Shown: positions 22,707 through 41,947, counted from the stretch's first letter. The stretch is 64,000 nucleotides of DNA from an uncultured Gemmatimonadales bacterium (GCA_963716255.1 OY970303.1:512001-576000), one strand, 5' to 3'. Notes: generated from the letters alone by a model not told the origin. Numbers and translations: made by a program.

Positions 22707-25700
22707 GGCGGCCGTCCTCCGCAGGGACGGTGGAGCGGTCGTCCACCCGCCCGTCCGCGCCGATCGTCCGCGTGTCCCGAGCGGAGGAAGGCACGCTCTC
22801 GATGGCGGTCCCGCCGCCGATGGTGAGAACCACGGGGCCGCGGTAGTCGGCCGGCACCGTGGCGAGCGGTCCGGCCGTCGATCTGTCGCCGAAGGTCCAG
22901 GCAACTTCCACTTCGCCGGAGGAATCGAAGTCCGCCCAGAATCGGAAGCCTCCGGCGTGGCGCGCGGCGACGCGGCGCACGGGGATCACGGCGTGGATCG
23001 GTTCGCCGGGATCGTCCGGGGCGGTGTCGGCGTTCCAGCCGTCCGTCGCCGCCACGCGCACCCGGTCGAGCTCGCCGACCGTGAGCCGGCTGAACGGGAT
23101 CTCCGCGGAGTCCTGGCAGCCGCGCAGGCGGAGGACCGGACTCCATCCCCGTTCGCTTCCGACCTCGATCGTGGCGGAGGAGTGGGCGGAGCCGGAGTGG
23201 TCGTATCCGAAGGTGATCCGCTCCCCATCCATCTCCACCTCCGTGAGCTCCGGAGCGCCCGTCAGGCGGTCGACGCGGCGGACGGGCGGGACGGCGGACT
23301 CTTCGTCGTCGCAGAAGGCGTGGAAGCGCGGCGCGCCTTCGCGGCGCAGCTCCAGGGCGACCACGTCGTCGGAGACGGGGAGGAGGACGACGGCGCGCGC
23401 GGGGCGGTCGCCCGTCATCGCGCGCACCGGGGCGGAGGAGCGGACCCGGCCCGCGCGGTCGAGCCCGACGGCGCGGAGGTCGGTCGCGAACGGGGCGCCG
23501 GAGCCCGCGCCGCGCTCCTCGACGCGCAGCGGCTGGAGCCGCACGGAGCCGTCACCCTCCAGCGTCCCGACGATGCGGAGCCGGGTGGTGCGCGGCGCGG
23601 CAGAGGGCGGCTCGGCATCCAGCAGGTCACCGAGGGCGCCGGGGGTGGAGACGGCCACGGCGCGCGCGCCCTCCGCCGGCTCCATCCGGAAGAACTCCCT
23701 CGACGTCGGCGGGGTCGGGACGACGGCGACCCAGATCGACTCCTCGAAGCCGGGGCAGCGGGCGGCGAGCGCGTTCAGCCGTTCGAGGATCTCCAGCGTC
23801 ACCGGCACGTCGCGCCCCTCCGCCGCGCCGTCGAGCGACAGCTCCGCGTCGTCGATCCAGGCGGGCTCCGAAGCCTGCACGTCGATCCCCCGGTAGGAGC
23901 GCGCTTCCTCGACGGCCTCCACCACGTCGCCCGCGGACACGCGCCGCAGCTCGCGGCCGACCGCAGCAGGGCGCACGACCACCAGCGAGCGGGTGCGGAG
24001 CGGGGCGAAGCGGATGGGGCCGAAGTCCCGCCGGTCCTCGATCTCGCCGTCCGGGCCGCGATAGACCACGGTGCCGGTCAGCCCGTCCACGGCCAGCTTC
24101 CCGGGAAGGGCGGCGGTGGCGCAGCCGGCTTCGACCCGCATCCCGATCCTCGTTTCGCCGATGAGCAGGTCGGCGTGGCCGGGGGCGTCGGCAGCGGAGA
24201 GCAGGGCGGCGACCTGTGCCTCCACCCCTTCCACCAGCACGGGCCCGGAGACGCGGAGGTCGGCGCCGCGGACGTTGACCGCGCTCGGCGGCTGCGACCG
24301 GGCGGGGTTGCTTCCGCCGACGATCCTGAGCGGCACGGCGGGGACGCGGCCCGGCTGGGCGACGTCGACGCGGCGGATGCGGACGCGGACGCGCGCGGCC
24401 AGCTCCCGGCGCACCGGGCCGCCGCACGCGCCCTGGACCACCAGCACGAACGCCGCGCGCGAGTGGTCTTCCGGGGCCCTGATCTCCAGGTGCCCCTCCG
24501 CCTCCACCGCGCCCTGCTTCGGCTCGATGGAGACGGCGCGCGCGCCGGCCACGCGCCAGGAGAGCCGCAGCGCCCCGCCTGGGTCGACCACCCCGGGCGC
24601 CAGCGACGCCTCCAGGACCACGGGCGCGCCTCCGTCGAAGCGGGCCTGCGGCGAGCGCGGCGGCGTGGGCGGCCAGGGGAGGAGCGGGATGGATTCGACG
24701 GGGACGGGACCGCCGCGCAGCGCCGGCAGCGTGTCGTTCCGCTCGCTCCACGCCAGGCGCAGCGCCTCGCGCCCGCGGTTGCTGCGCTCCCGCAGCGCCG
24801 GGTCCGCGAAGCCGATCCACCCCGCGTGCGCGCCCTCGGGGACGATGACGCCGATGGTCCCGGCGGCGGCGTCCACCACCCCGGGGAGCTGCGAGACGGA
24901 CGGGTGCCCCTGCGCGGAGAACACCACCTCGGCCAGTTCCTCCTCCAGGAGCGGGAGGAAGTGGGCGGAGTCGAGAGCGCGCTCCGCGCTCGCGGGGACC
25001 TCACCGGCGGCGAGGAATAGGATCGGCCCGTCGCCGATCAGCGGCTCAACGCGGAGGGTGACGGGCGTGCCGGGGCAGGCGTCGCGCGGCTCCACCTCAA
25101 CGATGGAGCCGGTGCCGGCGGCGTCCCAGGTGGTCGCGATCACGTCCGAGACGACGTACTCGAACAGGAGCTCCAGGCACGCCCACCGCGCCCGCTCGCA
25201 GGGATCGGTGAGGAAGGAGGCGATGGAGGCAGAGAGGCGGCGGTCCTGCCCGTTGTCGCTCCTTCCGCCCAGCCCGGCAAGCAGCGCCTTCACCTGCGAC
25301 ACCGACATCCCGGCGGCCAGCGAGCGCGCGAGCGCCTCGGCCGGGCCGGCGGCGATCGCCAGCCCCAGCACGTTGTTGATCAGCGGCTCGGCGAGCCCGG
25401 CCGGCATCCCCACCCTCCCGGCGGCGAGCGCCACGATCACCAGCCCGCCCATGTCCACCACGCCGTCGTCGCACGGGACGGCTGGCACGCTGGCCGCGAA
25501 CAGGCTCGCGTTCCCGCCGTCGCCCATGACGGCGCGGATGGCCGCGAGCGGCGGCACCTGCGTGGCGGCGAGGGCCAGGAGGAGACGCAGGCGCTCGGCG
25601 GCCAGGACGTCGTCGCCCAGGGCGCCCCCGGCGTCCTTCGCCAGCGCCTCCAGGAGCGAGAGCGGCGCCAGGAGGAGGGCTCGCGCGCCGTCCAGCGCCG

Positions 25701-25815
25701 GGTCCTGGGCCACGGCCGCGTCCAGTGCCCCCAGCAGCGCCTCGTGGCGCCGCGGATCGAGCACCACCAGCCCCTCGGCAGCCGCGTTGCTCGCCATCAT
25801 CAGCGGATCAGACAT
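22699..25815 (-). CDS. 1038 aa protein with helical N-terminus and several Ig/IPT-like domains (gene 13)
   Basis: IVEVEPRDACPGTPVTL and PGGALRLSWRV Ig-like starts; 8-nt overlap with the next gene. Confidence 0.65.
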   Translation of the reverse strand: MSDPLMMASNAAAEGLVVLDPRRHEALLGALDAAVAQDPALDGARALLLAPLSLLEALAKDAGGALGDDVLAAERLRLLLALAATQVPPLAAIRAVMGDGGNASLFAASVPAVPCDDGVVDMGGLVIVALAAGRVGMPAGLAEPLINNVLGLAIAAGPAEALARSLAAGMSVSQVKALLAGLGGRSDNGQDRRLSASIASFLTDPCERARWACLELLFEYVVSDVIATTWDAAGTGSIVEVEPRDACPGTPVTLRVEPLIGDGPILFLAAGEVPASAERALDSAHFLPLLEEELAEVVFSAQGHPSVSQLPGVVDAAAGTIGVIVPEGAHAGWIGFADPALRERSNRGREALRLAWSERNDTLPALRGGPVPVESIPLLPWPPTPPRSPQARFDGGAPVVLEASLAPGVVDPGGALRLSWRVAGARAVSIEPKQGAVEAEGHLEIRAPEDHSRAAFVLVVQGACGGPVRRELAARVRVRIRRVDVAQPGRVPAVPLRIVGGSNPARSQPPSAVNVRGADLRVSGPVLVEGVEAQVAALLSAADAPGHADLLIGETRIGMRVEAGCATAALPGKLAVDGLTGTVVYRGPDGEIEDRRDFGPIRFAPLRTRSLVVVRPAAVGRELRRVSAGDVVEAVEEARSYRGIDVQASEPAWIDDAELSLDGAAEGRDVPVTLEILERLNALAARCPGFEESIWVAVVPTPPTSREFFRMEPAEGARAVAVSTPGALGDLLDAEPPSAAPRTTRLRIVGTLEGDGSVRLQPLRVEERGAGSGAPFATDLRAVGLDRAGRVRSSAPVRAMTGDRPARAVVLLPVSDDVVALELRREGAPRFHAFCDDEESAVPPVRRVDRLTGAPELTEVEMDGERITFGYDHSGSAHSSATIEVGSERGWSPVLRLRGCQDSAEIPFSRLTVGELDRVRVAATDGWNADTAPDDPGEPIHAVIPVRRVAARHAGGFRFWADFDSSGEVEVAWTFGDRSTAGPLATVPADYRGPVVLTIGGGTAIESVPSSARDTRTIGADGRVDDRSTVPAEDGRHA

Positions 25816-25930: not shown

Positions 25931-27346
25931 TCAGTCGTGCGACTCCGGCGGATGCGCCTCCGCTTCCGGGGCCGGGGCCGGTGTCGGAGCCGGAGTCGCA
26001 GTCGGCGCGGGCTCGGAGCTCGGCGGTGTCGCTCCCGACGCCGTGTCGCCGCCGCCGCTCCCGCCGGCCGCGGAGAAGTCGCGGCGCTGGCGCAGGCTGC
26101 GCGCCTCGTCGGAGTCGGGGGCGGGGGGCGGCGTGGCGGGCAGCTCCGGGACTGCCTGGAAGTTGGCGGGCCGGGTGCGGCGCTCGCCGGTGTCGGCGGG
26201 GAGGAGGCTCTCCAGCTGGTGCTCCGCCACCGGGTTCATCGAGCGGTTGCGGATGTCGCGGACTGCACCCTCGCTCGTCATGCGGTTGAGCTGGATCGGC
26301 TCGGTGTGGAAGTTCACTTCCACGTCGGAGCGCAGCCCGGCCCTCACCGCGATCTCCTCGCGCGAGAACTGCTCGTCGGAGGTCACGTAGCCCACGGTGG
26401 CCTGCATGTTGGCGCTGGCCCCCCACATCCCGGTGCCGAAGGAAGCGCTCCCGCCGGTGGTGACGCGAGTGTCGGCGCGCTCGGCCTTGTTCTGCTCGGC
26501 GGTGCTCCGCGCATCCACCTGCAGGTTCATCGAGGCGTGGATCCGCCCCGCGTCCACCACGATGCGGTTCATCCCCATCAGCAGCATGGTGGAAAGCATC
26601 GCCTGGCGGTCGCGGGCCAGCTTGCGCTTCACCAGCGGGAGGAGCGTCTCCTCCAGCTCGTCCTCCTGGATGGTGGAGACCTCCTCCTCGGTGGCGTCGA
26701 GCGCGCTCTTCAGCTCGTCCTCCTCCGGCATATCCGCGCTCTCGCCCAGTTCCAGGATGGGCGGGGCCCCCTCGGCGGTGACCACGCGGAAGACCGGGAA
26801 GCGCTGCGCCGCCCAGTCCATCGCCCGGCCGGTGGTGATGCTGCTGGCGGCGAACTGGCCGGTGCTCATCCCCACCGCCCCCAGCAGGTCGGCGTACGCC
26901 GTGAGCTGCTGGATGGTGGATGTGTTCATCGCCTGGAAGACGCCCGTGATCAGCGAGGTGACGAAGCCGGGGAAGTCGATGGCGTTCCTGACGTTCTGCA
27001 GCACCCCCGCGGCCGAGTCCACCGCCGTGCGGCGATGGAAGTCGCCCGCCGCCTGCGCCCGGGCGAGCGCCGACTTCCCCGGGTCGGAAGCCGACATCCC
27101 GGCCGCGACCGCAGCCGGCTCCCCGGCGGGAGACGTGGAGAAGGCGGGGGAGGTGGACGACCTCCGGCGGCCGATCTGGTCCGTCAGCCGCCCGTCCACT
27201 TCCATCAGGTCGCAGGCGGTGGCGCAGACGCGCACCATGCTCTCGGCCAGGCGCCGCTGCAGCGCCGGGTCGCGGCGCAGCTCGGGCGTACGCTCGACGA
27301 CGGCGCGGACGGCGCGCCGGACGGTATCGAGCGTCCCACGGCTCAT
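25931..27346 (-). CDS. beta-hairpin paralog E (471 aa, gene 12)
   Basis: DFPGFVTSLITGVFQA, MLLMGMNRIVV and VEVNFHTE shared with four other genes. Confidence 0.85.
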   Translation of the reverse strand: MSRGTLDTVRRAVRAVVERTPELRRDPALQRRLAESMVRVCATACDLMEVDGRLTDQIGRRRSSTSPAFSTSPAGEPAAVAAGMSASDPGKSALARAQAAGDFHRRTAVDSAAGVLQNVRNAIDFPGFVTSLITGVFQAMNTSTIQQLTAYADLLGAVGMSTGQFAASSITTGRAMDWAAQRFPVFRVVTAEGAPPILELGESADMPEEDELKSALDATEEEVSTIQEDELEETLLPLVKRKLARDRQAMLSTMLLMGMNRIVVDAGRIHASMNLQVDARSTAEQNKAERADTRVTTGGSASFGTGMWGASANMQATVGYVTSDEQFSREEIAVRAGLRSDVEVNFHTEPIQLNRMTSEGAVRDIRNRSMNPVAEHQLESLLPADTGERRTRPANFQAVPELPATPPPAPDSDEARSLRQRRDFSAAGGSGGGDTASGATPPSSEPAPTATPAPTPAPAPEAEAHPPESHD

Positions 27347-28266
27347 CACGCCGCCCCGGCCGACGCGCCCCAGCTTTCCGCGTCGCGGATGACCGGGGCG
27401 CCCCGCGGGACGCGCACCGCGCCGGCGTCCAGGCGCGCCGCCTCGTCCGCGATCCAGCTGATGATCCGCATCCCCGACTGCGCCCGCGACAGGCGGCCCT
27501 GCACGTCCACCTGCCGCCCCAGGAGGCGGGGCGCGTGCCGGGACACGATCATCCACGGGCTCCCCCCGCCCATCGCCCTCACCACGTCCGCGTTGCGGAG
27601 GATGGAGAGCGCGGACCTCACCTGCGCCACGATGTCGCGCGCCGCGAAGGCCGCGATCCCGACGGCGCGGTTCGACAGCAGCGCTCCCAGTTCTTGCGCC
27701 TGCGCGGCGGCGCGGGCCTCCAGGCTCCCCGTCCCCAGGTCCTGCCTTGACCGGCCGATGGCCCTGAGCGTCTCCGCCAGCGCCTGGAGCTTCGGCTCCA
27801 CCGCGTCGCCCGGCTGCGGCTGCGCGGGGTCGCCCAGGAGGCGGGCGAAGAGGGCGCGCCGCTCGGCGCCGGTGAAGCGGTGGTCGCGCGACCTCCAGAA
27901 GCGGACCAGCTCGTGGACGGCCGCGCCCAGCGGCTCCATGATCGCCCCGGCCGCCACCCCCTGCGCCAGCGCCTCCACCAAGGGGAGGAGCCCGGCGGCC
28001 TCCAGCTCCGCCGCCCAGAAGAGCACCCCCGCAACGCGGAGCTGTGCGTCCACCAGGCGCCCGCCGCTCAGGGGCGGAAGGTCGATGACCCCCAGCGCGG
28101 CGGGACCGTACTGGCCGCGCACCGCCTCCATGTGCCGGGCCAGCAGCTCGTCGCAGTGGTCCAGCCCGGAGAGCTCCGGCGCCGCGTCGGCCACCGCGAG
28201 CGCGGCGGCCTGCGCGCTCCCGGGGACCGGGAAGATCGGGACCTGGGAAAGGAATCGGGAACTCAT
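27346..28266 (-). CDS. helical protein (306 aa), paralog of 33063-34688 (gene 11)
   Basis: RFTGAERRALFARLLG, GIAAFAA, AQSGMRIISWIAD align with the 541 aa protein; ATGA coupling. Confidence 0.8.
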   Translation of the reverse strand: MSSRFLSQVPIFPVPGSAQAAALAVADAAPELSGLDHCDELLARHMEAVRGQYGPAALGVIDLPPLSGGRLVDAQLRVAGVLFWAAELEAAGLLPLVEALAQGVAAGAIMEPLGAAVHELVRFWRSRDHRFTGAERRALFARLLGDPAQPQPGDAVEPKLQALAETLRAIGRSRQDLGTGSLEARAAAQAQELGALLSNRAVGIAAFAARDIVAQVRSALSILRNADVVRAMGGGSPWMIVSRHAPRLLGRQVDVQGRLSRAQSGMRIISWIADEAARLDAGAVRVPRGAPVIRDAESWGASAGAA

Positions 28267-29375
28267 TTCTGCGCCCGCTCGTTGACGGACTGGATCTGGA
28301 CGGACGAGGCCATCTTGTCGAGCGGGAAGGTCTCGCTCTTGAAGTTCACGCGGACCTCGCCGGTCAGGTTTGCCTTCATCTGCGCCTTGGACTCGCTGGT
28401 GTCGTCCACGCTCGACGTCACCACCGTCTTGTGCGTCTCCTGCGAGTCGTCGAAGCTGCTGCTGAACCACCCGCCGCCGTCGTGGGTCTGCCTGGCGGTG
28501 TCCTTCTGGTCGTAGAGCGAGGCGCGCGACTGGCGGTTGGCGTTGTCGTTGGCCTTCACGTCAAAGACCACCTTTGCGTTGATCAGCCCGTCGGTCACCA
28601 CGATGCGGTTGATCCCCAGAAGGACCATGGTGGCGAGCTGCTGCTGGCGCATCCTGGCCATCTCCAGCTGCGCCTGGCGCGTCAGCCGCGCCTCGCCCTC
28701 CTCTTCGTCCAGATCGAAGTCCTCCTTGATCCCCAGCGTGCTCTTCACGCCGGCCAGCGCCTTCTCCTCGTCGTCGACCCCGGGGCGCATCCGCAGCCGC
28801 GGCTTGCCGCCGTTCGTGTCGACGGTGAAAGTCTCGGGGAAGCGGTCGCTCAGGTAGTCGCGCGCCTGGTTCTGGGAGATGTGGTCCGAGGCGAACTGGT
28901 CGACGCTCTTGACCACCCCCTCCAGAAGCTTCCCGTACGCCTGCATCTGCCGGATGGAGGAGTCGACGATGGAGGTGAAGACGCCCTCGATCAGCCCCGA
29001 GACGAACTTGGGGAAGTCGACCGAGTCGACCAGCTCCTTGAAGGCTTTGGTCCCGGCCTCCATCGCGCCGGCCTTGAAGTCCCTCCCCACCACGTCCTGC
29101 TTGTTCGCCAGCCGGTCGCCCGTCTTCTCGGCGGCCGTCTTCTTCTCGGCCAGCGACTCGGCGAGCTCCGTCTCCGTCCCCATCGCCCCGGCGAGCTCGG
29201 GCTGCCCGGCCGCGGGGTCGGCCAAAAAGGCCACCACGTCCACCAGGCCCTGCGCAATCCGCCTGCGGTCGGGCTCGGGCATCCGTTTCCAGGCGTCGGA
29301 GCGCTCCAGGAGGCCCTTCACCTCGGAGCGGACCACGTCCTGCCGCTCGGGCGGGAGGTTCTTCAGCGCGGTCAT
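28263..29375 (-). CDS. beta-hairpin paralog D (370 aa, gene 10)
   Basis: DFPKFVSGLIEGVF, MVLLGINRIVVTDG, GEVRVNFKSET; ATGA overlap at 29372-29375. Confidence 0.88.
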   Translation of the reverse strand: MTALKNLPPERQDVVRSEVKGLLERSDAWKRMPEPDRRRIAQGLVDVVAFLADPAAGQPELAGAMGTETELAESLAEKKTAAEKTGDRLANKQDVVGRDFKAGAMEAGTKAFKELVDSVDFPKFVSGLIEGVFTSIVDSSIRQMQAYGKLLEGVVKSVDQFASDHISQNQARDYLSDRFPETFTVDTNGGKPRLRMRPGVDDEEKALAGVKSTLGIKEDFDLDEEEGEARLTRQAQLEMARMRQQQLATMVLLGINRIVVTDGLINAKVVFDVKANDNANRQSRASLYDQKDTARQTHDGGGWFSSSFDDSQETHKTVVTSSVDDTSESKAQMKANLTGEVRVNFKSETFPLDKMASSVQIQSVNERAQK

Positions 29376-30544
29376 GCGGTCCCCCGCTGGGCCGGGGCGG
29401 GCGCGGGAGCGCGGGCCGCCGCGGGAGCGCCGGCCGCGGGGGCCGCTCCCGGCTGCGAGAGGTAGTTCATCTGGTCCATCTGCAGCGCGTCCAGCATGCG
29501 CTCGGGCGGGAGGGTCTCGCTCTTGAAGTTCACGCGCACCTCGCCGGTGAGCTGCGCCTTCATCGCCGCCTTCGACTCGCTGGAGTCGTCGATGGAGCTG
29601 CGCACGGTGGTCTTGTGCTTCTGCTGGCTGTAGCCGCCCGCCGCCCCCCAGGGGAGCGCCGCAGTGGCGACGCCGCCCGTCTCGGACTGCGCCTGGTCGT
29701 CCAGGGAGGCCTTCGCATTCCGCCTGGCGTTGTCGCTGGCCTTGACGTCGAAGATCACCTTGGCGTTGATGCGGCCGTTGGTGACCACGATGCGGTTGAT
29801 CCCCAGCATCACCATCAGCGCCATCATCTTCTGGCGCTGGCGGGCCATCTCCAGCTTGGCGGCGGCGATGAACTTCTTCTCGCTTTCGGCGCTTGAAAGG
29901 TCGACCCGCTCCGTCGTCCGCGCGAACTGCTGGAGGCCGGCGGTGTCGCCGTCGCCGTCGTCGCTCGCCTGCATCAGGCGGGAGGTGCCGTCCTCGTCGC
30001 GGGAGATGCGCACGAGCGAGGGGAAGCGCTGCGCCACCTGCTCGCGCGCCTGGTCGTCGGAGATGTGGTCCTCGGCGAACTGGCCGACGGTCTTTGCGGT
30101 GGCGGCCAGGAGCTCGCCGTACGCCTCCATCTGCTGGATGGAGGCGTCGACGATGGCCTGGAAGACACCCTGGATCAGTCCGCTGACGAACGCCGGGAAG
30201 TCCACCGTCTGCACGAGGTTGCCAAACTCCTGCACGCCCTGCCTCATGGCGCCCGCCTCGAAGTCGGTCCCCACCTGGCCTGGCGCCTTGGCCAGGCGCT
30301 TCTTCAGGTCGTCCACCGGCCCCATGGCCTCGGCCATCCCCGCGCTCCCCGGCGGGTCGGCGGCGTCGAGCCACCCCGGGTCCCTGGCGAGGTACGCCGC
30401 CACCTTCACCATGTCCTGGGCGAAGGCCTTCCGGTCCGCGGGGCCCATGGTCTGCCACGCGGCCGACTGCGAAAGGACGTTGCCGACCTCCTGCCGGACC
30501 AGTCCGACGTCGTCCGGCGGGGCCGCGAGGGGCGTCGCGTCCAT
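29372..30544 (-). CDS. beta-hairpin paralog C (390 aa, gene 9)
   Basis: DFPAFVSGLIQGVF, MVMLGINRIVVTNG, GEVRVNFKSET. Confidence 0.88.
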   Translation of the reverse strand: MDATPLAAPPDDVGLVRQEVGNVLSQSAAWQTMGPADRKAFAQDMVKVAAYLARDPGWLDAADPPGSAGMAEAMGPVDDLKKRLAKAPGQVGTDFEAGAMRQGVQEFGNLVQTVDFPAFVSGLIQGVFQAIVDASIQQMEAYGELLAATAKTVGQFAEDHISDDQAREQVAQRFPSLVRISRDEDGTSRLMQASDDGDGDTAGLQQFARTTERVDLSSAESEKKFIAAAKLEMARQRQKMMALMVMLGINRIVVTNGRINAKVIFDVKASDNARRNAKASLDDQAQSETGGVATAALPWGAAGGYSQQKHKTTVRSSIDDSSESKAAMKAQLTGEVRVNFKSETLPPERMLDALQMDQMNYLSQPGAAPAAGAPAAARAPAPAPAQRGTA

Positions 30545-30547
30545 GGA

Positions 30548-31921
30548 TCAGGCCGCCGGCGCGGGGGCGACGGGCGTCTGCGCGGGGGCGGGGGCGGGCG
30601 GGGACGCCGCGGGAGCTCCGGCCGCTGCGGGGGCGCCCGGGGCCGGCGCGCCCCGGCCGGCGCTCTTCACGCGCTCCAGCTTGAAGATGTCGGCCTCGGC
30701 CACCAGCTTGTTGAGGTCCACCGTCTCCGACTTGAAGTTGAGCGACACCTCGCCGCGCAGCTGCCCCTCAGCCGAGACCTCGGCGTTGGTCGCCGTCTCG
30801 GTCATGTTGGACAGCGTGATCACCGGCGTGGTGGTGGTCTGGTCGACCCCGCGCGTCCACCGCGAGCTCTCGCCCGACTTGCTGGACCCGCGGTTCCACC
30901 ACCCGCGCGAGTTGCTCTCGTTGTAGTTCTCCCCGGTCTGCTCCGAGCTCTCGCGCTCCGACTGCGTGACCACGATGTTTCCCTGGTTCTCGTAGTCGAA
31001 GGTCTGCGCGTACGAGTTCATCGTGTCGCGGGCGCGGAAGTCGAAGCGCAGCTTCGCGTTGATCTTTCCGTCCGTGACCACGATCCGGTTGATCCCCATC
31101 AACAGCATGGTCGCCAACAGCGTCTGGCGGCTGCGCGCCAGGTCGTTGCGCGCGGCGGGGACCAGCTTCTCCTCGATGACCTCCTCGTCCAGGTCGTCGA
31201 CGTCCTCGTCCAGCCCCAGGTCGGCGCGGAAGTTGGGAAGCGTCATCCCGCCGGCGTTCGGCCGCGGCCCCACCTTGGGCTGGCCGTCCACGATGTTGAC
31301 CTGCATCAGCGTGGGATACTTGCCCACCAGGTGGTCGCGCGCCTGGTTCTCGGTGACGTTCTGGTCGCGGAAGTCGGAAAGCGACATCGCCACCGACTGC
31401 ACCATCTCGCCGTACGCTTTCATCTGCTGGACGGAGGCGTCGACCACGGCCTGGAAGACGCCCTGGATCAGCTCGGCGACGAAGTTGGGGAAGTTGACCT
31501 CGCGCAGCAGCTCGCCCGCCTGCTGCACCCCCATGGCGATCCCGCTCCCGAAGTCGCCGGCCTTCTTGGGCCCGATGTTGTCGGAACGCCGGGTGGTGGC
31601 GCCGCCGCTCCCCTTCAGGAAGGCGCCGCGGTCGGTGGTCGTCACCCCCGTCTGCCCCTGTCCGGGGCGGCCGGGGATCCCCCCGACGCCGGTCCTGTCG
31701 TCCATGGAGACGGCGAAGGGGTCGCCCCCGCCGCCGCCCTCCGCGGCCACCTGGCTGAGCCGGTTGGCGGCCAGCGTGGCGACGACCGCCTCGGTGTTCC
31801 GGCGGATGCTCTCCTGGTCGGCCGGGGGGAGCGCGTGGTACGACGCGCTCCGCCCCAGCATCTCGCCCACCTGCCGCCGGACCTCGTGGTCCTGTTCGGG
31901 CCGGCTCAACGTGCTCGTCAT
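30548..31921 (-). CDS. beta-hairpin paralog B (457 aa, gene 8)
   Basis: NFPNFVAELIQGVF, MLLMGINRIVVTDG, GEVSLNFKSET; GGGAGG RBS. Confidence 0.88.
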   Translation of the reverse strand: MTSTLSRPEQDHEVRRQVGEMLGRSASYHALPPADQESIRRNTEAVVATLAANRLSQVAAEGGGGGDPFAVSMDDRTGVGGIPGRPGQGQTGVTTTDRGAFLKGSGGATTRRSDNIGPKKAGDFGSGIAMGVQQAGELLREVNFPNFVAELIQGVFQAVVDASVQQMKAYGEMVQSVAMSLSDFRDQNVTENQARDHLVGKYPTLMQVNIVDGQPKVGPRPNAGGMTLPNFRADLGLDEDVDDLDEEVIEEKLVPAARNDLARSRQTLLATMLLMGINRIVVTDGKINAKLRFDFRARDTMNSYAQTFDYENQGNIVVTQSERESSEQTGENYNESNSRGWWNRGSSKSGESSRWTRGVDQTTTTPVITLSNMTETATNAEVSAEGQLRGEVSLNFKSETVDLNKLVAEADIFKLERVKSAGRGAPAPGAPAAAGAPAASPPAPAPAQTPVAPAPAA

Positions 31922-31957
31922 GGCTCAAGTCCTCCCGGCCGGGTCGACCGGCCGGCG

Positions 31958-33043
31958 TCAGGCGTGGTATGGGTCGGCGTACGCGGGCGCCGCGGCGTGG
32001 ACGCCGCCGGGCGAGGTGGACTGGCGCCCCTGCTGCGCGTAGCCGTTGGGGCGGATGTAGAGCGAGCAGCGCGTGCCGGCCACCTGAGGCTGGCTGCGGA
32101 AGCTCACCACGCTGATGGCTCCGGGCCCCTGTTCCCACTCGTCGTCCGGGGTCATGGCCTGCACCCACTTGCGCAGCTGCATCTGTGCCTGCGGCCGCTC
32201 GCCCATCGTCATCTTCAGCAGGTCGAACATCTGCCGCGGGGGGTCGGGGACGCCGGCCACCAGCACGTCCAGCTTCATCTCGATCCCCTTCTCCGTGTCG
32301 CGCAGCCCCAGGATGACCGAACCCTCAGGGAGGACGAAGCGCCCGCCCAGGACCACCCCGGCCGAGGCCAGGAGAGCGGGGAGCTGCGCGCCCACCCCCA
32401 GGCGGTGCATCAGCGGCTCCAGGTCCAGGAGCCGGAGGTCGCCCCGGTGGAAGAAGTAGAGGCGCTGCGCCCCCTTCTGCCGCCCGCAGGCGATGGAGGT
32501 GAAGATGGGGACGAGCCCGGGGAGGCACTGCACGGCCACGCGGGCCACGTGCTGCAGGTTGGGCGGGAGGCCGTCCACGTCGCCGGGGCGGAGCTCGTAG
32601 TAGACCTTCGACTCCTGTACCCCCGCGGGGTCGACGCCCAGGCCGAACCAGGCCCCGAAGCGGGCGCCGCCGTGCAGCGCGGCGCCGCGGAAGTGCTCGC
32701 TCCGCTCGTCGAACCAGCGCAGCGCCGCCGAGCCGAAGTTGCCGGAGACCACCCGGCGCATCTCGCGGCCGGCCTCCTGCTGCCGGGCGTGGGCGCCGGC
32801 CCCGGGGCCCAGCGGCTCGATGTCGAGCCGCAGGGCGTCGGATGCGACCTCCGAGAAGGAGTGCTCGATCGGCGTATAGCCGGGCGTCAGCTCATTCTGG
32901 CCGTAGCGCGGGTCCCCCACCGGGAGGTCGAGGCTGCGGTCCAGGAGCCCGCCGATGATCTCGCCCGGGTCCGGCGTCCCCAGCCGGCGCGAGGCGATCT
33001 GGAGGCGGCGCCGGGCCACCTCCGCGGCTCTTTGATTGGACAT
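31958..33043 (-). CDS. DMATS/ABBA aromatic prenyltransferase-like protein (gene 7)
   Basis: LTPGYTPIEHSF..LRLDIEP, KVYY, RLYF, SLYIRP resemble DMATS barrel motifs. Confidence 0.6.
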   Translation of the reverse strand: MSNQRAAEVARRRLQIASRRLGTPDPGEIIGGLLDRSLDLPVGDPRYGQNELTPGYTPIEHSFSEVASDALRLDIEPLGPGAGAHARQQEAGREMRRVVSGNFGSAALRWFDERSEHFRGAALHGGARFGAWFGLGVDPAGVQESKVYYELRPGDVDGLPPNLQHVARVAVQCLPGLVPIFTSIACGRQKGAQRLYFFHRGDLRLLDLEPLMHRLGVGAQLPALLASAGVVLGGRFVLPEGSVILGLRDTEKGIEMKLDVLVAGVPDPPRQMFDLLKMTMGERPQAQMQLRKWVQAMTPDDEWEQGPGAISVVSFRSQPQVAGTRCSLYIRPNGYAQQGRQSTSPGGVHAAAPAYADPYHA

Positions 33044-33062
33044 GGTTCAGATCCTCCCCGGC

Positions 33063-34688
33063 TCAGGAGAGCTGCGGGACGGCCGGGAGGCCGCCCAGCC
33101 CGGCCTGCTCCAGCGCGCCGCGCACGATCGCCGCCCGCGAGCCGTCGCCGTTGCCGTTCATCGGCGCGAACGCCGGGATGCTGGGCTGCGACTTGATGTC
33201 GACCGGGTCGGTGTACTTCTCCAGGCTCGCGTCCGGCGTGCCGGTAACCGCCAGCCAGCGCTCCACGTTGGCCACCAGGAAGGGGTCGGTGAAGTCGATG
33301 GCGTTGACCGCCGAGTTCCCGGCCAGCTGCGGCGCGCGGTCGGCCAGCCAGCGCATGATGGCGAAGCCGGTCTGCGCCATAGTGCGGTAGCGCACGGTGT
33401 TGATCGAGCCGCCCAGGTACATCGACGAGAGGCGGTCGACGAGCTGCAGGTAGTCGCGGACGCCGTATGCCGAGAGGACTTCGGACTGCTGCAGCATGTC
33501 GAGCACCTGCTGCACCAGCGCCTGTGTCTCCACCGCGGCGAAGTGCGCCACCCCGTAGCCGTGCAGCGACAGGTTGACGGCCAGGTCGCGTCCCGACTTC
33601 AGCGCCTGCTCGAAGGAGGTGCCGCGCGGCATCTGGCTGTTCTGCTCGCGCGACAGCACGCTGACGATGGAGCAGAAGCGCAGCCACAGGTCGCTGAACT
33701 CGCGGTTCAGCACCACCCCGCCCGCCGGCCCCTGGGCCAGCCCCAGGGCGCGGCCGTAGACGCCGCGGCGCTCCACCTCGGTGTAGCGGTTGGGGGCCTC
33801 GCGGATCCAGTTGTAGACCTTGTCGCCGGCCGGCCCGCGCGAGAGCGGGATCATCCCGATGGAGAAGTGCTCGGCGACCTTCTCGGCCACGGCGAAGAGC
33901 TTCATCTCCTCCAGCATCGCCGTGCGGTAGAGCCCCGCCACCGCCAGCACGTTGTCAGCGATGATGTCGACCGCCGTCCCCGCGTCCAGGTCGATGTCGC
34001 GGATGTCGATGTCCGACGCCGTCCCGTCCACGCGGCTGCTGAGCGCCTGCGTGAGCGCGGTGACGATCAGCCGGCGGATCTGCGGGTGGTCGGCCGGGAC
34101 GCGGTCGTCGATCATCCGCCCGGTTACCTCGGCCAGGAGGCGCGTGTGCAGCGTGGTCTCGAAGGCGGCGCCGTCGTCGGCGCGGCTGCTCCCCTCCTCC
34201 AAGAGGACGCGGAAGACCTCCCTGAAGAGCTCCTTGCTGGAGTTGTAGCGCTTGACGGCGTCGGTCACCGCCTCCACGAAGCGCTCGACGATCAGGATCT
34301 TCTCACCGTCCTGCTCGAAGGCGATGTCGTTGGGCCCGGCGGCCCCGGTGGCCAGGCGGCCGAGCGACGCGTCGGTGAAGTTGCGCGACAGGAGGATCCC
34401 GAAGATCGACGAGAAGAGGATCTTCTCCTCCTGCAGCAGCGCCTCGAGGATCTTGGGATCGGCCTTGGGGATCTTCCCGAAGCCGCCGGGGAAGTTCTCG
34501 GCCGAGGTGGTGGTGCTCCCGTCCGGGTCGAACGAGAAGTTCGAGCGGAGGAGGTGGCGGACTGCGAGGTACAGGCGCTTCCGCTGGCGGTTGCGCTCCA
34601 GGCGCCGCGTGGTCTCCGCGGGGGACTCGGCGGGGGTGGGGCGCTCGAAGAGGTCGGGGTAGTACTCTTTGCAGTTCGGGGCGACCAT
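33063..34688 (-). CDS. helical protein of unknown function (541 aa, gene 6)
   Basis: Coding-like composition; C-terminal half paralogous to 27346-28266. Confidence 0.8.
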   Translation of the reverse strand: MVAPNCKEYYPDLFERPTPAESPAETTRRLERNRQRKRLYLAVRHLLRSNFSFDPDGSTTTSAENFPGGFGKIPKADPKILEALLQEEKILFSSIFGILLSRNFTDASLGRLATGAAGPNDIAFEQDGEKILIVERFVEAVTDAVKRYNSSKELFREVFRVLLEEGSSRADDGAAFETTLHTRLLAEVTGRMIDDRVPADHPQIRRLIVTALTQALSSRVDGTASDIDIRDIDLDAGTAVDIIADNVLAVAGLYRTAMLEEMKLFAVAEKVAEHFSIGMIPLSRGPAGDKVYNWIREAPNRYTEVERRGVYGRALGLAQGPAGGVVLNREFSDLWLRFCSIVSVLSREQNSQMPRGTSFEQALKSGRDLAVNLSLHGYGVAHFAAVETQALVQQVLDMLQQSEVLSAYGVRDYLQLVDRLSSMYLGGSINTVRYRTMAQTGFAIMRWLADRAPQLAGNSAVNAIDFTDPFLVANVERWLAVTGTPDASLEKYTDPVDIKSQPSIPAFAPMNGNGDGSRAAIVRGALEQAGLGGLPAVPQLS

Positions 34689-34764
34689 GGCGGGTCATCT
34701 CCAGTCCGAAGTGATGGGGTCGTTGCGGCCGTGAATTGCTACTGTCCCGGGGAACGGCTTCGGG

Positions 34765-36237
34765 CTACGGCGATCTCGCCACCTCGAGCGTCTCCCGCAC
34801 CGGCTCGGCCCATCCGGGCGGCTCCTCGAGCTCCTCGCTCGCGAGCTCCCGCTCCAGGGCCCTCAGCGCAGCCGTGGCATCCAGGATCCCTGCGCCGCAG
34901 CCGGCCGTGTCCGCGCCCCGTGGGAAGGGGCGCGCCGTGCGCTTCAGAAGGTCGCGGACCCCCTCGCCGTCGATCGGCCGGCTGTAGCGCGCCGACCTGG
35001 CCACCAGGAGGGCGGCGATGCCGGCCGCGAACGGCGCGGCGAAGGAGGTGCCGGTGTTGAACTGGTATCCGCCCACCGCGGTCGACGGGATGCTCTCGCC
35101 GGGGGCGCAGAGGTCTACGTGGTCGCCGCGGGTGGTGAACGAGGCGGGCGTCTCGTCGGCCCCCACGGCGCCCACGGCGATCACGCCGTCCAGGCATGCC
35201 GGGTAGTAGCGGGCGCCGGTGCCGCTGTTGCCCGAGGCGGCGACGAGCACGCACCCGTGCCGGCGGGCGTAGTCGACCACCTCCTTGTGGGGGCGCGGGT
35301 CCTTTTCGCGCAGCGCGCTCTCGGGCGTGCCGAAGGAGAGGTTGAGCACCTTGGCCCCCAGGTCCACCGCGGTCTTCACCGCCAGATCGATGTCGATCAG
35401 GCTTCCCAGCGCCGTCGCGTCGCGGCGCCCCACCATCCGGGCCCCGGCCAGGGCGCGGCAGGCCATCACCCGCAGGTCTCCGCCGCACCCCTTCGGGAGC
35501 TTCTTCCCCCGCGCCGCGATGATCCCGGCGCAGGCGGTGCCGTGGCCCACGATGTCGTCGGGGACGCGGTCGGGGCGGGAATGGTCGCCCACCAGGCGCA
35601 TGGAGCGCGGCACCTGTTCGCCCGGGAGGTCCACCGTGTCGAAGCCGGGGCGGAGCGCGCCCTCCAGGTCGGGGTGGTGCAGGTCGATCCCGCTGTCCAC
35701 GATGGCCAGGATCAGCGCGCTGTCGCCCGGCTCCATCGCCAGCGCCTCGGCGGCGTGGATCATCCGGTGCCCGTACCAGGGGTCCTCCGGCCGCGCCCGC
35801 CTGGCGCCCTGCGCCCCGAACGGCGTCACCGAGAGGTAGACGGGGCTCACCGACTGGATGGTGGCGAGCGAGCCCACCTCCTCGATCAACGACACCAGGT
35901 CCGCGTCGGGGTCCACGTCGATGCGGAAGGTGCGCGAGAGGCCGGTCTCCTCTTCCAGGTCGCTCCAGCGGTCCTTCCGCTCGCCGGGCGAGCCGATGCG
36001 GTTCGCGGGCGAGAAGGTGCGGACGACGCGGAGCGCGGGGGAAAAGCGCTTGACCGCGCGGTCGACCTGGCCGCCGTCGAAAGAGAGCGGCGCCACGGCG
36101 AGGCCCGACGCCACGTCGGCGCGGTGGGGCACCCGGTCGGGCGCTTCGCCGGAGGCGACGCGGATCACCAGGCGGCCGCGGAGCGCGAGCCGGGTGCGCT
36201 CGGGCTCCCAGGGGCGGTCCGGCGCGGATTCAGTCAT
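34765..36237 (-). CDS. S8 subtilisin-like serine protease, no signal peptide (gene 5)
   Basis: Triad motifs VDSGID, HGTACAG, GTSFAAP; oxyanion ASGN; ~140 aa N-terminal prodomain. Confidence 0.93.
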   Translation of the reverse strand: MTESAPDRPWEPERTRLALRGRLVIRVASGEAPDRVPHRADVASGLAVAPLSFDGGQVDRAVKRFSPALRVVRTFSPANRIGSPGERKDRWSDLEEETGLSRTFRIDVDPDADLVSLIEEVGSLATIQSVSPVYLSVTPFGAQGARRARPEDPWYGHRMIHAAEALAMEPGDSALILAIVDSGIDLHHPDLEGALRPGFDTVDLPGEQVPRSMRLVGDHSRPDRVPDDIVGHGTACAGIIAARGKKLPKGCGGDLRVMACRALAGARMVGRRDATALGSLIDIDLAVKTAVDLGAKVLNLSFGTPESALREKDPRPHKEVVDYARRHGCVLVAASGNSGTGARYYPACLDGVIAVGAVGADETPASFTTRGDHVDLCAPGESIPSTAVGGYQFNTGTSFAAPFAAGIAALLVARSARYSRPIDGEGVRDLLKRTARPFPRGADTAGCGAGILDATAALRALERELASEELEEPPGWAEPVRETLEVARSP

Positions 36238-37102
36238 GGTCGGCTCCGTTCCCCGTGGGCGCCGCCAGCGGCACCGCCACCAGCTCCGTCGCCATCCGCG
36301 GGTCCCCCGCCTCGCGGACGGCCCGGCCCGGATCGCGGAGCTCCGCGGGGGCCACCAGGTCGGCGGGGAGGTCGTAGAAGCCCATCGCCCGCGTCCCGCC
36401 CACGCTCACCTCCACCTGCCCCTCGCGGTGGTGCGACATCGGGCGGACCAGGAGGGAGTTGGAAGTTGCCTCCAGCACCTCCACCGGCTCGCCGGAAAGG
36501 AGGACCTGGGGGATGCCTTCGGACGAGAGGTTGGCGCCGCGGACGCGCAGAAGGCTCCGCCCGCCGCGCCTGACCACCTCGGTGCTGCTGACCGCCGGCC
36601 GCGAGGCCTGCTGGAGGGCGGCCTGCAGGCGGAGCATCGGGATCCCGGCGTAGGTCTCCACCGAGCGCGGGTCGGTCTCCTGCGAAAGGCGCTTGAGCTG
36701 TCCCACGGTGCGCACGCCGATCATCTCCAGCCGCCTCCGGTCCTGGTCGCTGAAGGCATCCTCGCCGGGGAGGTCCTGCAGCCCGCGCGGGTCCTCGTCC
36801 ATCCCCACCGAGAAGGTGTTCTCCTCCACCATCTCCCTGGTAATGGTGGTGAAGTTCAGGTGCACGGTGCTGGCGCCGTCCTCGTTGGGCCCGGCGTGGC
36901 GCACCAGCACGCGCCCCGTGGGGTCCGACTCCCAGAAGACGCGCAGATCGATGCTGAGGTCCTTGATGGCGAAGGTCAGCGGCCTCCCGGTGCGCGCCTT
37001 GAGCGCCAGGCCGTCCTGTGCGCGGTCGAGCTGCGCCGAGAGCGCCTGCACGAACTCCTCTACCGGGAACGCCCGACCCTGGCGCTGCGCCTGTCCGTTC
37101 AC
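36230..37102 (-). CDS. 290 aa protein: Trypco-like N-terminus, HhH-like middle, IPT/TIG C-terminus (gene 4)
   Basis: VEEFVQALSAQLDRAQ..FAIKDLSIDLRV; LEMIGVRTVGQL; LRVRGANL..VLLSG. Confidence 0.6.
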   Translation of the reverse strand: MNGQAQRQGRAFPVEEFVQALSAQLDRAQDGLALKARTGRPLTFAIKDLSIDLRVFWESDPTGRVLVRHAGPNEDGASTVHLNFTTITREMVEENTFSVGMDEDPRGLQDLPGEDAFSDQDRRRLEMIGVRTVGQLKRLSQETDPRSVETYAGIPMLRLQAALQQASRPAVSSTEVVRRGGRSLLRVRGANLSSEGIPQVLLSGEPVEVLEATSNSLLVRPMSHHREGQVEVSVGGTRAMGFYDLPADLVAPAELRDPGRAVREAGDPRMATELVAVPLAAPTGNGADHD

Positions 37103-37332
37103 GATCCCTCCTCGGCCAGGCGCATGCGGAGGCGCCCGTGCGGAAGGCCGAAGCCGGTGGCCAGCATCCCGCGCGGAAGCGACATCTCCACCTCGCCGGC
37201 GCGAACGATGCGTGCCTCGATCGGGAGGTCGAGGGTGACCTCGGCGACGGAGAGGCCGAGCCCCGGCGCCTCGGGGGGAGCCACCGCGAAGGCGTCGGCC
37301 AGCTGGTCGATGAGCTGCTCGATGCGCGTCAT
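37099..37332 (-). CDS. 77 aa helix plus beta-hairpin protein (gene 3)
   Basis: MTRIEQLIDQLADA..LSVAEVTLDLPIE; 4-nt overlaps with both neighbours. Confidence 0.75.
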   Translation of the reverse strand: MTRIEQLIDQLADAFAVAPPEAPGLGLSVAEVTLDLPIEARIVRAGEVEMSLPRGMLATGFGLPHGRLRMRLAEEGS

Positions 37333-38462
37333 GACGGGCCTCCGGCCGGGGCCGGCGCGATCGCCGGCTTCTGCTCGGCGGGCTGCTCGGCGCCAGGACG
37401 CAGGCGGGAGTGGCGGTTGATCAGCTCGATGGCCTGCGAGTCGGCGAAGCGCTCCAGGTTGAAGGTCTCGCTCCGGAAGCGGATGGCGACCTCGCCGACG
37501 AGGTTCGCCTTGATTGCGACGTCGGCCTGTGCGTTGACGCTCACGGTGGAGACCTTGGTGGAAACCCCGCCGCTGGAGCCCGTGTCGCGGCTGGCGATCC
37601 CGCTCTGCACCGCGGCGGCGTTGTCGGTCAGGTCCACCTTCACCGCCTCGCGGGCGGTGGCGTGGAACTGCAGCCGGGCCTTGATCTGTCCGTCCTGGAT
37701 GACGATGCGGTTGACCCCCAGGAGCACCATGGTCGCCAGCGTCTGCATCCGCTCTTCGGCCATCCCCATCCGCCCGGCCTCGAGCAGCGCCCCCTCCGCC
37801 AGCTCCTCCGTCAGCTCCTGGCCGGCAAGCTTGTACTGCTCCAGCCACGCGGGCGAATCGGCGTCGTCCTTCCTGCGGGGCTTGAGCTTCGGCGAGCCGG
37901 TCGAGCCGGCGCTCGGGACGACGACGACCAGGTCCTGCGGATGGCGCTCGGCCAGGGCGAAGCGCACCTGGTTGGGCGAGACGTTTTCGCGTGCGAACTG
38001 GTCGACGGTCTGCGCGATGCTGGCCACCAGCTTGGCGTACTCGCGGATCTGCTGCGCCGTGGCGTCGACGATGGCCTGGAAGGTCCCGTTGATCAGCTCG
38101 GCGACGAACGACGGGAAGTCGACCGCCTCGAGCGCGGCGCGCGCCCGCTGGCCGATCACCTCGGTGCCGGCCGGCTTGGCGGCGGTCGCGCCCGGCGGCG
38201 GCTGCACTGGCTGCGGCTGCTGCTGCGAGGGAGGAAAGCCGGCACCGCCCTGCATCCGCTGCAGGTCGGCCGGGGTCTCGAACGCGACGGCGTACGGGTC
38301 GTACGCCGCGGCGGACGCGACCGCGGGCGGCGAGAGGGCGCCCTCGATGCGGCGGAGGTCGTCCTCCAGCGCCTGACGCTCGGCGTACGACAGGTTCTCG
38401 TAGCCGGACAACTGGCGGATGCTGCGCGTAGCCGCGAGGGCCGCGGCGGCCGGGTTGCTCAT
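37329..38462 (-). CDS. beta-hairpin paralog A (377 aa, gene 2)
   Basis: DFPSFVAELINGTFQA, MVLLGVNRIVIQDG, GEVAIRFRSET. Confidence 0.88.
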   Translation of the reverse strand: MSNPAAAALAATRSIRQLSGYENLSYAERQALEDDLRRIEGALSPPAVASAAAYDPYAVAFETPADLQRMQGGAGFPPSQQQPQPVQPPPGATAAKPAGTEVIGQRARAALEAVDFPSFVAELINGTFQAIVDATAQQIREYAKLVASIAQTVDQFARENVSPNQVRFALAERHPQDLVVVVPSAGSTGSPKLKPRRKDDADSPAWLEQYKLAGQELTEELAEGALLEAGRMGMAEERMQTLATMVLLGVNRIVIQDGQIKARLQFHATAREAVKVDLTDNAAAVQSGIASRDTGSSGGVSTKVSTVSVNAQADVAIKANLVGEVAIRFRSETFNLERFADSQAIELINRHSRLRPGAEQPAEQKPAIAPAPAGGPS

Positions 38463-40565: not shown

Positions 40566-40581
40566 GGCAGGCAGCGTACCA
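40566..40581 (-). promoter_or_regulatory. sigma-54 (-24/-12) promoter of the 14-gene operon
   Basis: Minus strand TGGTACGCTGCCTGCC is GG-N10-GC, ~60 nt upstream of ATG 40505; bEBP gene adjacent. Confidence 0.75.
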
Positions 40582-40942: not shown

Positions 40943-41947
40943 TCACTCCCGCTGGAGCTTCTTGAAGATGGTGCGGACGTGGATGTTGAGGCGCTCGGCG
41001 GCGCGCGTGCGGTTTCCTTCCTCCGCGCGCAGCGCCGCGTCGATGATGGCGCGCTCGCAGTGCTCCACCGCCTCGGCCAGCGAGAGGCCGCTCTTGGCGA
41101 CCAGGTCCCACAGGTCGTCCGTCATCTCGCGCGACGCGGGCGCCGGCGCGGGACAGTCGTCCGTGGGGATGCCGAGGTCCTCCGCGTCGATCATCTCCTT
41201 CTCGGAGAGAAGCGCCGCCCGCTCTATGCAGTGCTTCAGTTCGCGCACGTTCCCCGGCCAGTCGTAGCGGTGCAGCGCCGCCAGCGCTCGCGGCGTGAAG
41301 CCGTGGCCGGGGCCCACCGTCTCATAGAGGAAGTGGCAGGCCAGCAGCTCGATGTCACCGCCGCGCAGGCGCAGGGGCGGGAGGGCGATGCGCATCACCT
41401 CCAAACGGTAGAGGAGGTCGGCCCGGAACTCGCCGCGCCGCACGCTCTCGGCGAGGTCGCGGTTGGATGCCGCGATCACCCACGTCCGGATCTGCTCCAC
41501 CCGGTCCGAGCCCACGCTGCGGAATTCGCCGCTCTCCAGGAAGCGTAGCAGGCTGGCCTGCACCTTCGGCGACAGCGAATCGACCTCGTCCAGGAACAGC
41601 GTCCCCCCGGAGGCCGTGCGCAGCAAGCCGTTGCGGGCGTCGCGCGCCCCGGTGAAAGCGCCGCGGGTGTGTCCGAACAGCTCGTCCTCGGCGAGCGTGT
41701 CTGGAAGCGCTCCGCAGTGCACCACCACGAACGGCACGTTCCCCGGCTGCCCGCGCAGGTGCAGGGCCTGGGCGATGATTTCCTTTCCCGTGCCGGTGGG
41801 GCCGGTGATCAGCGTGGTGCGGCGGACGCGCGCCACCGCGTCCAGGGATTTCACCACATCGCGGATCACCGGGGACTCCCCGACGAGGCCGAGTGGCCCG
41901 GTGCGGAGCACCCGCTGGGCGCGCACGCTTTCCATTGCGATGGTCAT
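40943..41947 (-). CDS. sigma-54 enhancer-binding protein without an N-terminal sensor domain
   Basis: GPTGTGKE, GAFTGA, LFLDEV, FRADLLYRL, WPGNVREL, Fis-type HTH; AAA+ domain begins ~20 aa from the start. Confidence 0.92.
   Translation of the reverse strand: MTIAMESVRAQRVLRTGPLGLVGESPVIRDVVKSLDAVARVRRTTLITGPTGTGKEIIAQALHLRGQPGNVPFVVVHCGALPDTLAEDELFGHTRGAFTGARDARNGLLRTASGGTLFLDEVDSLSPKVQASLLRFLESGEFRSVGSDRVEQIRTWVIAASNRDLAESVRRGEFRADLLYRLEVMRIALPPLRLRGGDIELLACHFLYETVGPGHGFTPRALAALHRYDWPGNVRELKHCIERAALLSEKEMIDAEDLGIPTDDCPAPAPASREMTDDLWDLVAKSGLSLAEAVEHCERAIIDAALRAEEGNRTRAAERLNIHVRTIFKKLQRE

Follow-up and report, generated by a model that had tools for sequence, protein, structure and literature searches.

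The stems of PA, CDTb, aerolysin and lysenin are protease-activated, and MACPF proteins contribute two hairpins per subunit, both from a bent four-stranded sheet. In bacteria, Trypco1 and Trypco2 correspond to Pepco, which forms beta-barrel pores of nine or ten subunits that are lethal after protease cleavage, as described in a preprint (bioRxiv 10.1101/2025.11.14.688446). The operon studied here lies in a 64,000-nucleotide stretch of DNA from an uncultured Gemmatimonadales bacterium (GCA_963716255.1 OY970303.1:512001-576000; genome 8.4 Mb). The whole stretch is called the window, and positions are counted from its first letter. The operon encodes five paralogous proteins, A to E, each modelled with one long beta-hairpin, alongside a subtilase, a protein resembling aromatic prenyltransferases, a relative of Pepco and predicted wall hydrolases. 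It is a real and conserved system, scattered over many phyla and apparently undescribed. The portion examined of the paper that named Trypco (PMC7159879) and two supplement files do not describe it, and no description of the operon, nor any account of the function of DUF2589 (PF11655), a family discussed below, was found in the literature searched, which mostly excluded subscription journals. The sequences and models point, at about even confidence, to a sigma54-induced, protease-licensed beta-barrel pore or conduit that would act on bacterial envelopes together with wall hydrolases.

A genome-wide search found A to E to be the sole family members in the 8.4-Mb genome. The paralogues are 30-48% identical to C, and a protein search found the closest named relatives of the window proteins in Longimicrobium sp. 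(79% for C). The family is large, with 1,493 hits among 8,000 scored candidates and 1,987 clusters at 50% identity, and it extends over many phyla with no assigned fold or function. Carriers include myxobacteria, Ramlibacter, Burkholderia, Sphingomonas, Lysobacterales, Acidobacteriota, Planctomycetota and cyanobacteria, many of them being myxobacteria and Lysobacterales. The distribution is patchy. Within the window's phylum, 2 of 201 genomes carry the family; for two further phyla the counts are 11 of 301 and 2 of 301 genomes. A family pattern was searched in one-per-species genomes, where 406 of 429 matches were confirmed and 80 loci were retained. Class statistics were calculated on unique homologous inserts from 80 genome loci, with 307 of 331 hits parsed; the 24 unparsed hits include the window's own E, one C-like row is counted under B, and the homologues share ancestry, so insert counts are not independent events. 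In one root metatranscriptome the contigs came only from relatives (7% of words), so that it was uninformative on expression of the window operon.

Long hairpins and their tryptophans

At its N terminus, each protein is modelled with a small helical domain; a low-complexity linker, a helical head and a single long hairpin follow. AlphaFold2 was run on the C core from 150 sequences, and coevolution was calculated on 598 sequences (Meff 295). The C core model (mean pLDDT 80) has helices and then two strands of about 40 residues each, 250-289 and 306-344; it contains this one long hairpin and one short surface hairpin, with no central sheet. The antiparallel hairpin proposed in the original prediction is borne out both by these strands and by the coevolving pairs, 14 of the top 20 of which fall on the anti-diagonals i+j = 595 or 597 (z 2.5 and 1.9). 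In the model, the Ser/Thr-rich insert is the distal part of this single antiparallel hairpin. The coevolving pairs include a fully polar face (N256, R258, N260 and K262 with N339, R337, E335 and T333), and the base of the hairpin has one hydrophobic face and one that is polar and charged, as might be expected of a barrel lumen. The second anti-diagonal fits a two-residue offset between neighbouring subunits.

The insert lengths first reported (56, 96, 68, 67 and 64 residues in A to E) are exact when measured between the two conserved motifs that bound the insert, and so are the tryptophan positions within it: 48 and 49 in B, which has another at 62, then 34 in C, 32 in D and 33 in E, with none in A. 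The inserts are Ser/Thr-rich as described (Ser plus Thr 20-27%, against 11-16% in the whole proteins). The further proposal that the Trp is central whatever the length holds for part of the family. Among homologues, 93 of 103 C/D inserts and 59 of 60 class E inserts have a Trp no more than 3 residues from the centre, but only 10 of 73 class B and 4 of 51 class A inserts do. Random expectation for one Trp is about 10%, and the central Trp in C/D and E exceeds chance. In C/D its position tracks insert length (30 of 63, 36 of 72, 40 of 82; slope 0.58, r 0.92, n=98, with the Trp nearest to the centre taken), and because the Trp shifts with length, insertions in C/D appear to be symmetric about the tip. 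Class A inserts are 51-59 residues long, and 31 of the 51 contain a Trp somewhere. Class B inserts are the longest and most variable (62-117 residues) and are polar; most have no Trp, and the WW pair of the window is not conserved.

Class E has an insert of 64 residues in 59 of 60 homologues, and its tip shows strict hydrophobic/polar alternation on both sides of the turn, flanking Trp308. The stem of D is polar and ends in just a Trp-Phe tip, and neither D nor B has an alternating tip. D is an extra C-like copy, found only in some operons. Measured from the base, C, D and E reach their tips after 32-37 residues, at a roughly common level. Judging by sequence, E is the best candidate for a membrane-spanning subunit. 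The idea of a membrane-inserting hairpin is thus upheld in part, by the alternating amphipathic tip of class E; the stems of D and B are unlike a standard transmembrane hairpin. The 100-160 Å stem that accompanied this idea does not stand: with barrel tilt it comes to about 74-127 Å (shear equal to strand number) or 87-148 Å (half that shear).

Complete operons carry 4-6 paralogues, and classes A, B, C and E are co-retained in a fixed order across phyla. In a tree of 84 sampled cores the sequences cluster by class and not by host, with 4 changes, which is the minimum, and with class A as one clade (100/99). Because the cores group by class with minimum changes, the classes seem to be old and to have been retained as a set.

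Searches of Pfam, NCBIfam, PADLOC and PDB sequences gave no assignment for A to E, with no PDB sequence hit at E<=10, and Pfam had no hit in any of the 150 family members listed. The weak Foldseek rows for the C core cover the hairpin only (E 0.0085 or worse, TM about 0.1-0.2) and are mostly long hairpins of oligomeric barrels, namely phage lower collar, FliF, PA, CDTb and lysenin (all E>0.001). In BFVD, a lower collar protein matches the C core at E 6.1e-4 but with a TM of only 0.16. A kinship to aerolysin, PA or MACPF is not supported: Foldseek found no match in the PDB at E<=0.001, and the best VIA match (Z 4.6) is to unrelated helices, which does not imply that the fold is novel.

The hairpin family is probably a remote relative of DUF2589, which was an Atlas lead at 0.77, with none of the 150 family members listed reaching the Pfam cut-off. 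Class E aligns to the DUF2589 profile end to end over 177 columns (E 7e-5, probability 35%), and its score of 25.8 compares with a maximum of 11.7 among 30 shuffled nulls. Four other alignments in global mode were not above the null, classes other than E match DUF2589 only at the first helix, and a comparison built on 7 sequences was not significant. In the DUF2589 loci (L086-L117), 2-3 paralogues stand next to each other; one has a long insert with a Gly/aromatic tip and another is short, a layout which echoes the hairpin-plus-partner arrangement. PF19631 (Trypco2) is not among the hits of A to E or the listed hits of 150 cores, and the hairpin core has no detectable profile match to the operon's own Trypco2-bearing protein.

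Operon partners and operon types

The operon has the conserved order A, small gene, 290-aa gene, S8 subtilase, 541-aa gene, 361-aa gene, B, C, (D), 306-aa gene, E. The coordinates are collected in Table 1. Gene content was counted in 50 long loci (>19 kb): the 290-aa, subtilase, 541-aa and 361-aa genes are each present in 50 of 50, the 306-aa gene in 48 and the papain-like domain in 41.

Table 1. Features of the hairpin operon and its flanks, in window positions; insert and Trp coordinates are nucleotides
Feature	Positions	Strand	Description
Sigma54 enhancer-binding protein	40943..41956	-	N-terminal sensor domain not detected
Candidate sigma54 promoter	40567..40581	-	about 60-75 bases upstream of first gene; 2 mismatches; chance-level alone
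First gene, 679 aa	38466..40505	-	no Pfam hit; 2/14 homologues with sub-threshold GH46 or peptidoglycan-binding match
Hairpin protein A	37329..38462	-	377 aa; insert 56 aa at 37497-37664; no Trp
Small protein, ~77 aa	37099..37332	-	weak Trypco2 match, E 0.083
290-aa protein	36230..37102	-	N-terminal Trypco2/Pepco-like domain and TIG domain
S8 subtilase, 490 aa	34765..36237	-	catalytic motifs D181, H232, S398; no signal peptide seen
All-helical protein, 541 aa	33063..34688	-	paralogue of 306-aa protein
DMATS/ABBA aromatic-prenyltransferase-like, 361 aa	31958..33043	-	directly upstream of B
Hairpin protein B	30548..31921	-	457 aa; insert 96 aa at 30755-31042; WW at 30896-30901
Hairpin protein C	29372..30544	-	390 aa; insert 68 aa at 29546-29749; tip Trp299 at 29648-29650
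Hairpin protein D	28263..29375	-	370 aa; insert 67 aa at 28362-28562; tip Trp303 at 28467-28469
Short helical paralogue, 306 aa	27346..28266	-	directly upstream of E
Hairpin protein E	25931..27346	-	471 aa; insert 64 aa at 26330-26521; tip Trp308 at 26423-26425
1038-aa protein	22699..25815	-	in 16/50 long loci
Multidomain protein, ~1310 aa from likely start	18774..22706	-	papain-like C70, VanY/M15 peptidase, phage-tail lysozyme, DUF2272

The Trypco2-bearing gene is the one partner common to all three operon types. In the 290-aa family the Trypco2 domain is weakly matched in 17 of 42 members, with one homologue above the Pfam cut-off. The original reading of the hairpin proteins as beta-pore formers gains from the presence in the operon of a protease gene and of a domain related to that of a known beta-barrel pore former (Trypco2/Pepco). 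The 541-aa helical protein has no significant Foldseek or VIA match (best Z 5.2), which does not imply a novel fold; it is a candidate chaperone or scaffold.

The variable linker before the core contains an A-x-A-L/M/Q-like motif in 108 of 167 linkers (shuffled 43, maximum 59) and in 30 of 47 of a second linker set (shuffled 7.5, maximum 16). The motif agrees with subtilase preference and is a candidate cleavage site of the operon's subtilase. By eye, an A-x-A-L-like motif also seems to recur between the domains of the multidomain proteins at 18774-22706 and 38466-40505, which suggests polyprotein processing by the subtilase. In the flanking multidomain proteins the C70 papain-like domain is constant, while the amidase, lysozyme, M15-type or peptidoglycan (PG)-binding domains paired with it vary; the target therefore appears to be the bacterial wall. 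Wall enzyme or PG-binding domains were found in 12 of 33 papain-domain neighbours scanned, many of which are clipped at the locus edge.

Of the one-gene loci, 6 of the 7 that have the activator show a sigma54 site upstream, against 0 of the 20 that lack it. Such a site also precedes the operon in the window and in 2 of the 10 multi-gene loci for which upstream sequence exists; counted over the whole window, the pattern occurs at a chance frequency (39 found, 56 expected). Neither a sigma70 site nor a terminator was found in 40400-41000. A simple hydropathy scan, not a dedicated predictor, showed no signal peptide or clear transmembrane segment in any component, nor the hydrophobic N-terminal stretch of a secreted toxin. 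PADLOC gave no hit beyond generic subtilase models, and the operon has no phage-sensor domain. The sheath gene of the type VI secretion system (T6SS) is present in 18 of 31 carrier genomes and has no match in 13, including the complete genome G444; obligatory T6SS dependence was rejected on this count.

Two simpler operon types were found. The one-gene type (L127:4893-17899 in G444, and L128-L206) has an activator, a subtilase, a helical protein, one hairpin gene, a Trypco2-like gene and a papain-domain protein with PG-binding/OmpA or lysozyme domains, and has no prenyltransferase. Its hairpin tips are mostly aliphatic and resemble a short amphipathic loop, not a two-strand span. One-gene operons occur in two further lineages. 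The two-gene type (L208:4282-7561, L209:9808-13099, L210:9350-11715) pairs a hairpin protein with a Trypco2-TIG protein, has a Trp at or near the turn, and is extended by a solute-binding SBP_bac_5 domain in two cases; neither a subtilase nor a prenyltransferase was seen in it. Because single-gene versions exist, hetero-assembly is not obligatory for the family, and a mixed ring like the membrane attack complex (MAC) is plausible only for the multi-paralogue type. In a separate locus (L211:9832-11784), a hairpin protein without the N-terminal domain stands beside a hairpin-less paralogue, followed by a small gene.

At the edges of the window operon, a DUF4062 protein (E 4.7e-22; 17042-18103) converges on the operon end and was not found in the 80 related loci. 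Just upstream of the activator, ORFs of 209 and 168 aa (42940-44108) resemble, by eye, a split IS630-type transposase.

The prenyltransferase-like protein and the tip tryptophan

The 361-aa protein is predicted to be a DMATS/ABBA prenyltransferase-like enzyme. Its family matches Trp_DMAT in 18 of 45 members (best E 1.3e-4) and an NCBIfam model at E 0.008, below the Pfam cut-off, and its Atlas neighbours are Trp_DMAT and PTase_Orf2 at 0.94 with low recognition. The family's own profile has no direct PDB hit. An alignment of 308 columns links it to three genomic DMATS proteins (E 3.8e-4, hhalign probability 36%), whose profile in turn hits solved bacterial DMATS at E 1e-53 to 1e-78. E60, R72, K146, Y148, R194 and Y329 are invariant in 45 of 45 members and aligned to conserved DMATS positions, while position 196 varies between Y and T. 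From the DMATS literature, we take E60 to be the indole-binding Glu and the basic and Tyr positions to be diphosphate-binding. Carrier genomes also contain unrelated DMATS fusions: judged by eye, one (L119:1309-2997) has a C-terminal region resembling isopentenyl-diphosphate isomerase, and two (L118:1267-3135 and L120:1369-3171) have a helical C-terminal domain.

The enzyme family is found in 4 of 4 multi-paralogue genomes, once per genome and inside the operon; it was not found in any of 10 single-match genomes, three of them fragments. It is in none of the 80 one-gene loci, 24 of which span the subtilase to the 290-aa gene. One-gene tips have 3.9 aliphatic/Phe residues per central 11, compared with 1.4-2.0, and a central Trp in 2 of 71. 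These data raise the possibility, at less than even odds, that the DMATS-like enzyme prenylates the hairpin-tip Trp. If true, this would possibly be the first DMATS-type enzyme to lipidate a protein for membrane anchoring, and a new protein modification. A 2026 review covers eukaryotic protein prenyltransferases and two bacterial peptide-modifying families, and DMATS is absent from its main text (PMC13290415).

It is fairly probable, though, that the prenyltransferase-like protein acts on another operon protein or a small molecule, or serves as a binding scaffold itself, and that the Trp is an ordinary interfacial anchor or turn residue. Trp-tipped members without the enzyme exist: two-gene L209 and L210, from genomes without the enzyme, have a Trp at the turn, and the basal one-gene member L169 has a Trp near the tip and no enzyme. 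Of 71 one-gene inserts, 5 have a Trp no more than 5 residues from the centre, and the enzyme/Trp link is a single evolutionary contrast on one branch. The similarity to DMATS is remote, as the hhalign value indicates, position 196 is variable, and known DMATS act on free Trp or small indoles. What speaks for the tip Trp as substrate is that no small-molecule pathway genes are among the conserved neighbours, that the six likely active-site positions are invariant, and that the single gene copy sits within the operon.

Proposed mechanism and alternatives

In the proposed mechanism, sigma54 and the activator would switch the operon on. The cytoplasmic subtilase would cut the linker at the A-x-A-L/M/Q-like motif and remove the N-terminal domain, a step that is somewhat favoured. 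The subunits would then assemble into a ring whose hairpins close into a single barrel; its lumen would be polar, its collar helical and its stem about 75-130 Å long. That the subunits oligomerise is very probable and that they insert into a membrane is probable; the chances of a mixed ring are even. The tips of C, D and E would enter the bacterial membrane, with E supplying the amphipathic span and the tip Trp perhaps prenylated by the DMATS-like enzyme to anchor otherwise polar tips. The pore would work with the co-encoded peptidoglycan hydrolases to breach the envelope. Taken as a whole, a multi-subunit barrel that is freed by the subtilase, lipid-anchored at its tips by Trp prenylation of the folded protein, and delivering interchangeable hydrolases across a bacterial envelope is improbable; if true, it would define a new class of pore or translocase.

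Several observations weigh against this pore. The distal hairpin of the C model (about 294-322) has pLDDT <50, the C core has no significant structural match, and non-pore tubes (phage collar, FliF) match equally well in the weak Foldseek rows. A single twisted hairpin could also yield both anti-diagonals. The stems of D and B are polar up to the tip, lacking the alternation typical of a transmembrane hairpin. The linker motif was picked after inspecting the linkers, and its rows are related. The two-gene modules have no subtilase in the stretches read, and an export route is not evident.

Four other readings were weighed, the first two being versions of the pore reading that differ in their target. 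In self-lysis, the barrel would open the producer's own inner membrane and free the hydrolases, like a holin and endolysin, either in programmed lysis or as a Pepco-like abortive defence. The lack of signal peptides and transmembrane segments, the incomplete T6SS distribution and the Pepco precedent agree with it, but it seems unlikely given that neither a phage sensor nor a specific PADLOC match accompanies the operon, that sigma54 control points to induced expression, and that the interchangeable wall enzymes look like an arms race with foreign walls. In a released weapon, a lysed subpopulation would free a complex that inserts into other bacteria and delivers hydrolases through the barrel or alongside it, in the manner of a binary-toxin translocase. 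The constant papain domain with its variable wall-cutting domains, the patchy spread, the many myxobacterial and Lysobacterales carriers, and a long polar stem with a hydrophobic tip like PA/CDTb (in weak rows) all fit. No receptor-binding domain or immunity gene was identified, however, secretion genes are missing from the conserved set, and a 75-130 Å stem is too short for the whole periplasm, which is about 200 Å wide; this version is not likely either.

The hairpins might instead build a structural tube or collar, similar to the podophage lower collar or FliF, which is not a pore but is only attached to a membrane or belongs to some larger particle. The top weak Foldseek rows are indeed phage lower collar and FliF, the BFVD match is a lower collar protein, the B and D stems are polar throughout, and the one-gene tips look like an amphipathic loop. 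The conserved neighbours nevertheless include no sheath, tube, baseplate or phage-structure genes, and the fixed length and strict alternation of the E tip, together with the Pepco-type partner, count against it, which leaves the tube doubtful. Lastly, each paralogue may form its own homo-oligomer, as separate or stacked rings with different jobs. One-gene operons in two further lineages would agree with this, and very different hairpin lengths are hard to fit in a single closed barrel. The co-retention of A, B, C and E in fixed order across phyla, their grouping by class and their shared core strand register make it a less likely arrangement than not.

If the pore reading is right, the operon represents a new family of beta-barrel pores that exists naturally in one-, two- and multi-subunit forms and whose stem length is tunable. 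DUF2589 would gain a mechanism, and the Pepco module would be extended to an envelope-breaching machine. The one-gene type is the simplest for experiments, and the carriers include cultured, non-pathogenic species, among them Chitiniphilus shinanonensis and Pseudoxanthomonas suwonensis.

Compared with known systems, the 361-aa protein has a remote end-to-end similarity to the bacterial tryptophan DMATS (PriB, CymD, 6ZRX and kin) and shares their conserved active-site positions, but it falls below the Pfam cut-off and sits in a protein-machine operon, not a metabolite cluster. The hairpin proteins share with MAC/MACPF several paralogous subunits that may form one barrel of long strands; unlike MACPF and CDC proteins, the modelled protein has one hairpin and no bent sheet. 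With PA, CDTb, aerolysin and lysenin they share one long Ser/Thr-rich hairpin per subunit with a hydrophobic tip, the long hairpin being modelled in C and the amphipathic tip seen in E, but their head is helical and not a beta-sandwich, they have no signal peptide, and the cargo seems to be aimed at bacterial walls. DUF2589 shares the order of elements (N-terminal helix, strand, Ser/Thr-rich Gly/aromatic-tipped hairpin, strand, short helix), to which the family here adds an N-terminal domain, a helical insert and a longer hairpin. Pepco is likewise a cytoplasmic helix-plus-hairpin subunit, paired with a serine protease and carrying a low-complexity Pro-rich tail. Pepco has about 117 aa, forms a homo-9/10-mer and is coupled to a phage sensor, whereas the proteins here have 370-470 aa, strands of about 40 residues and 4-6 paralogues, and their operon also encodes a subtilase, a prenyltransferase-like gene and wall hydrolases.

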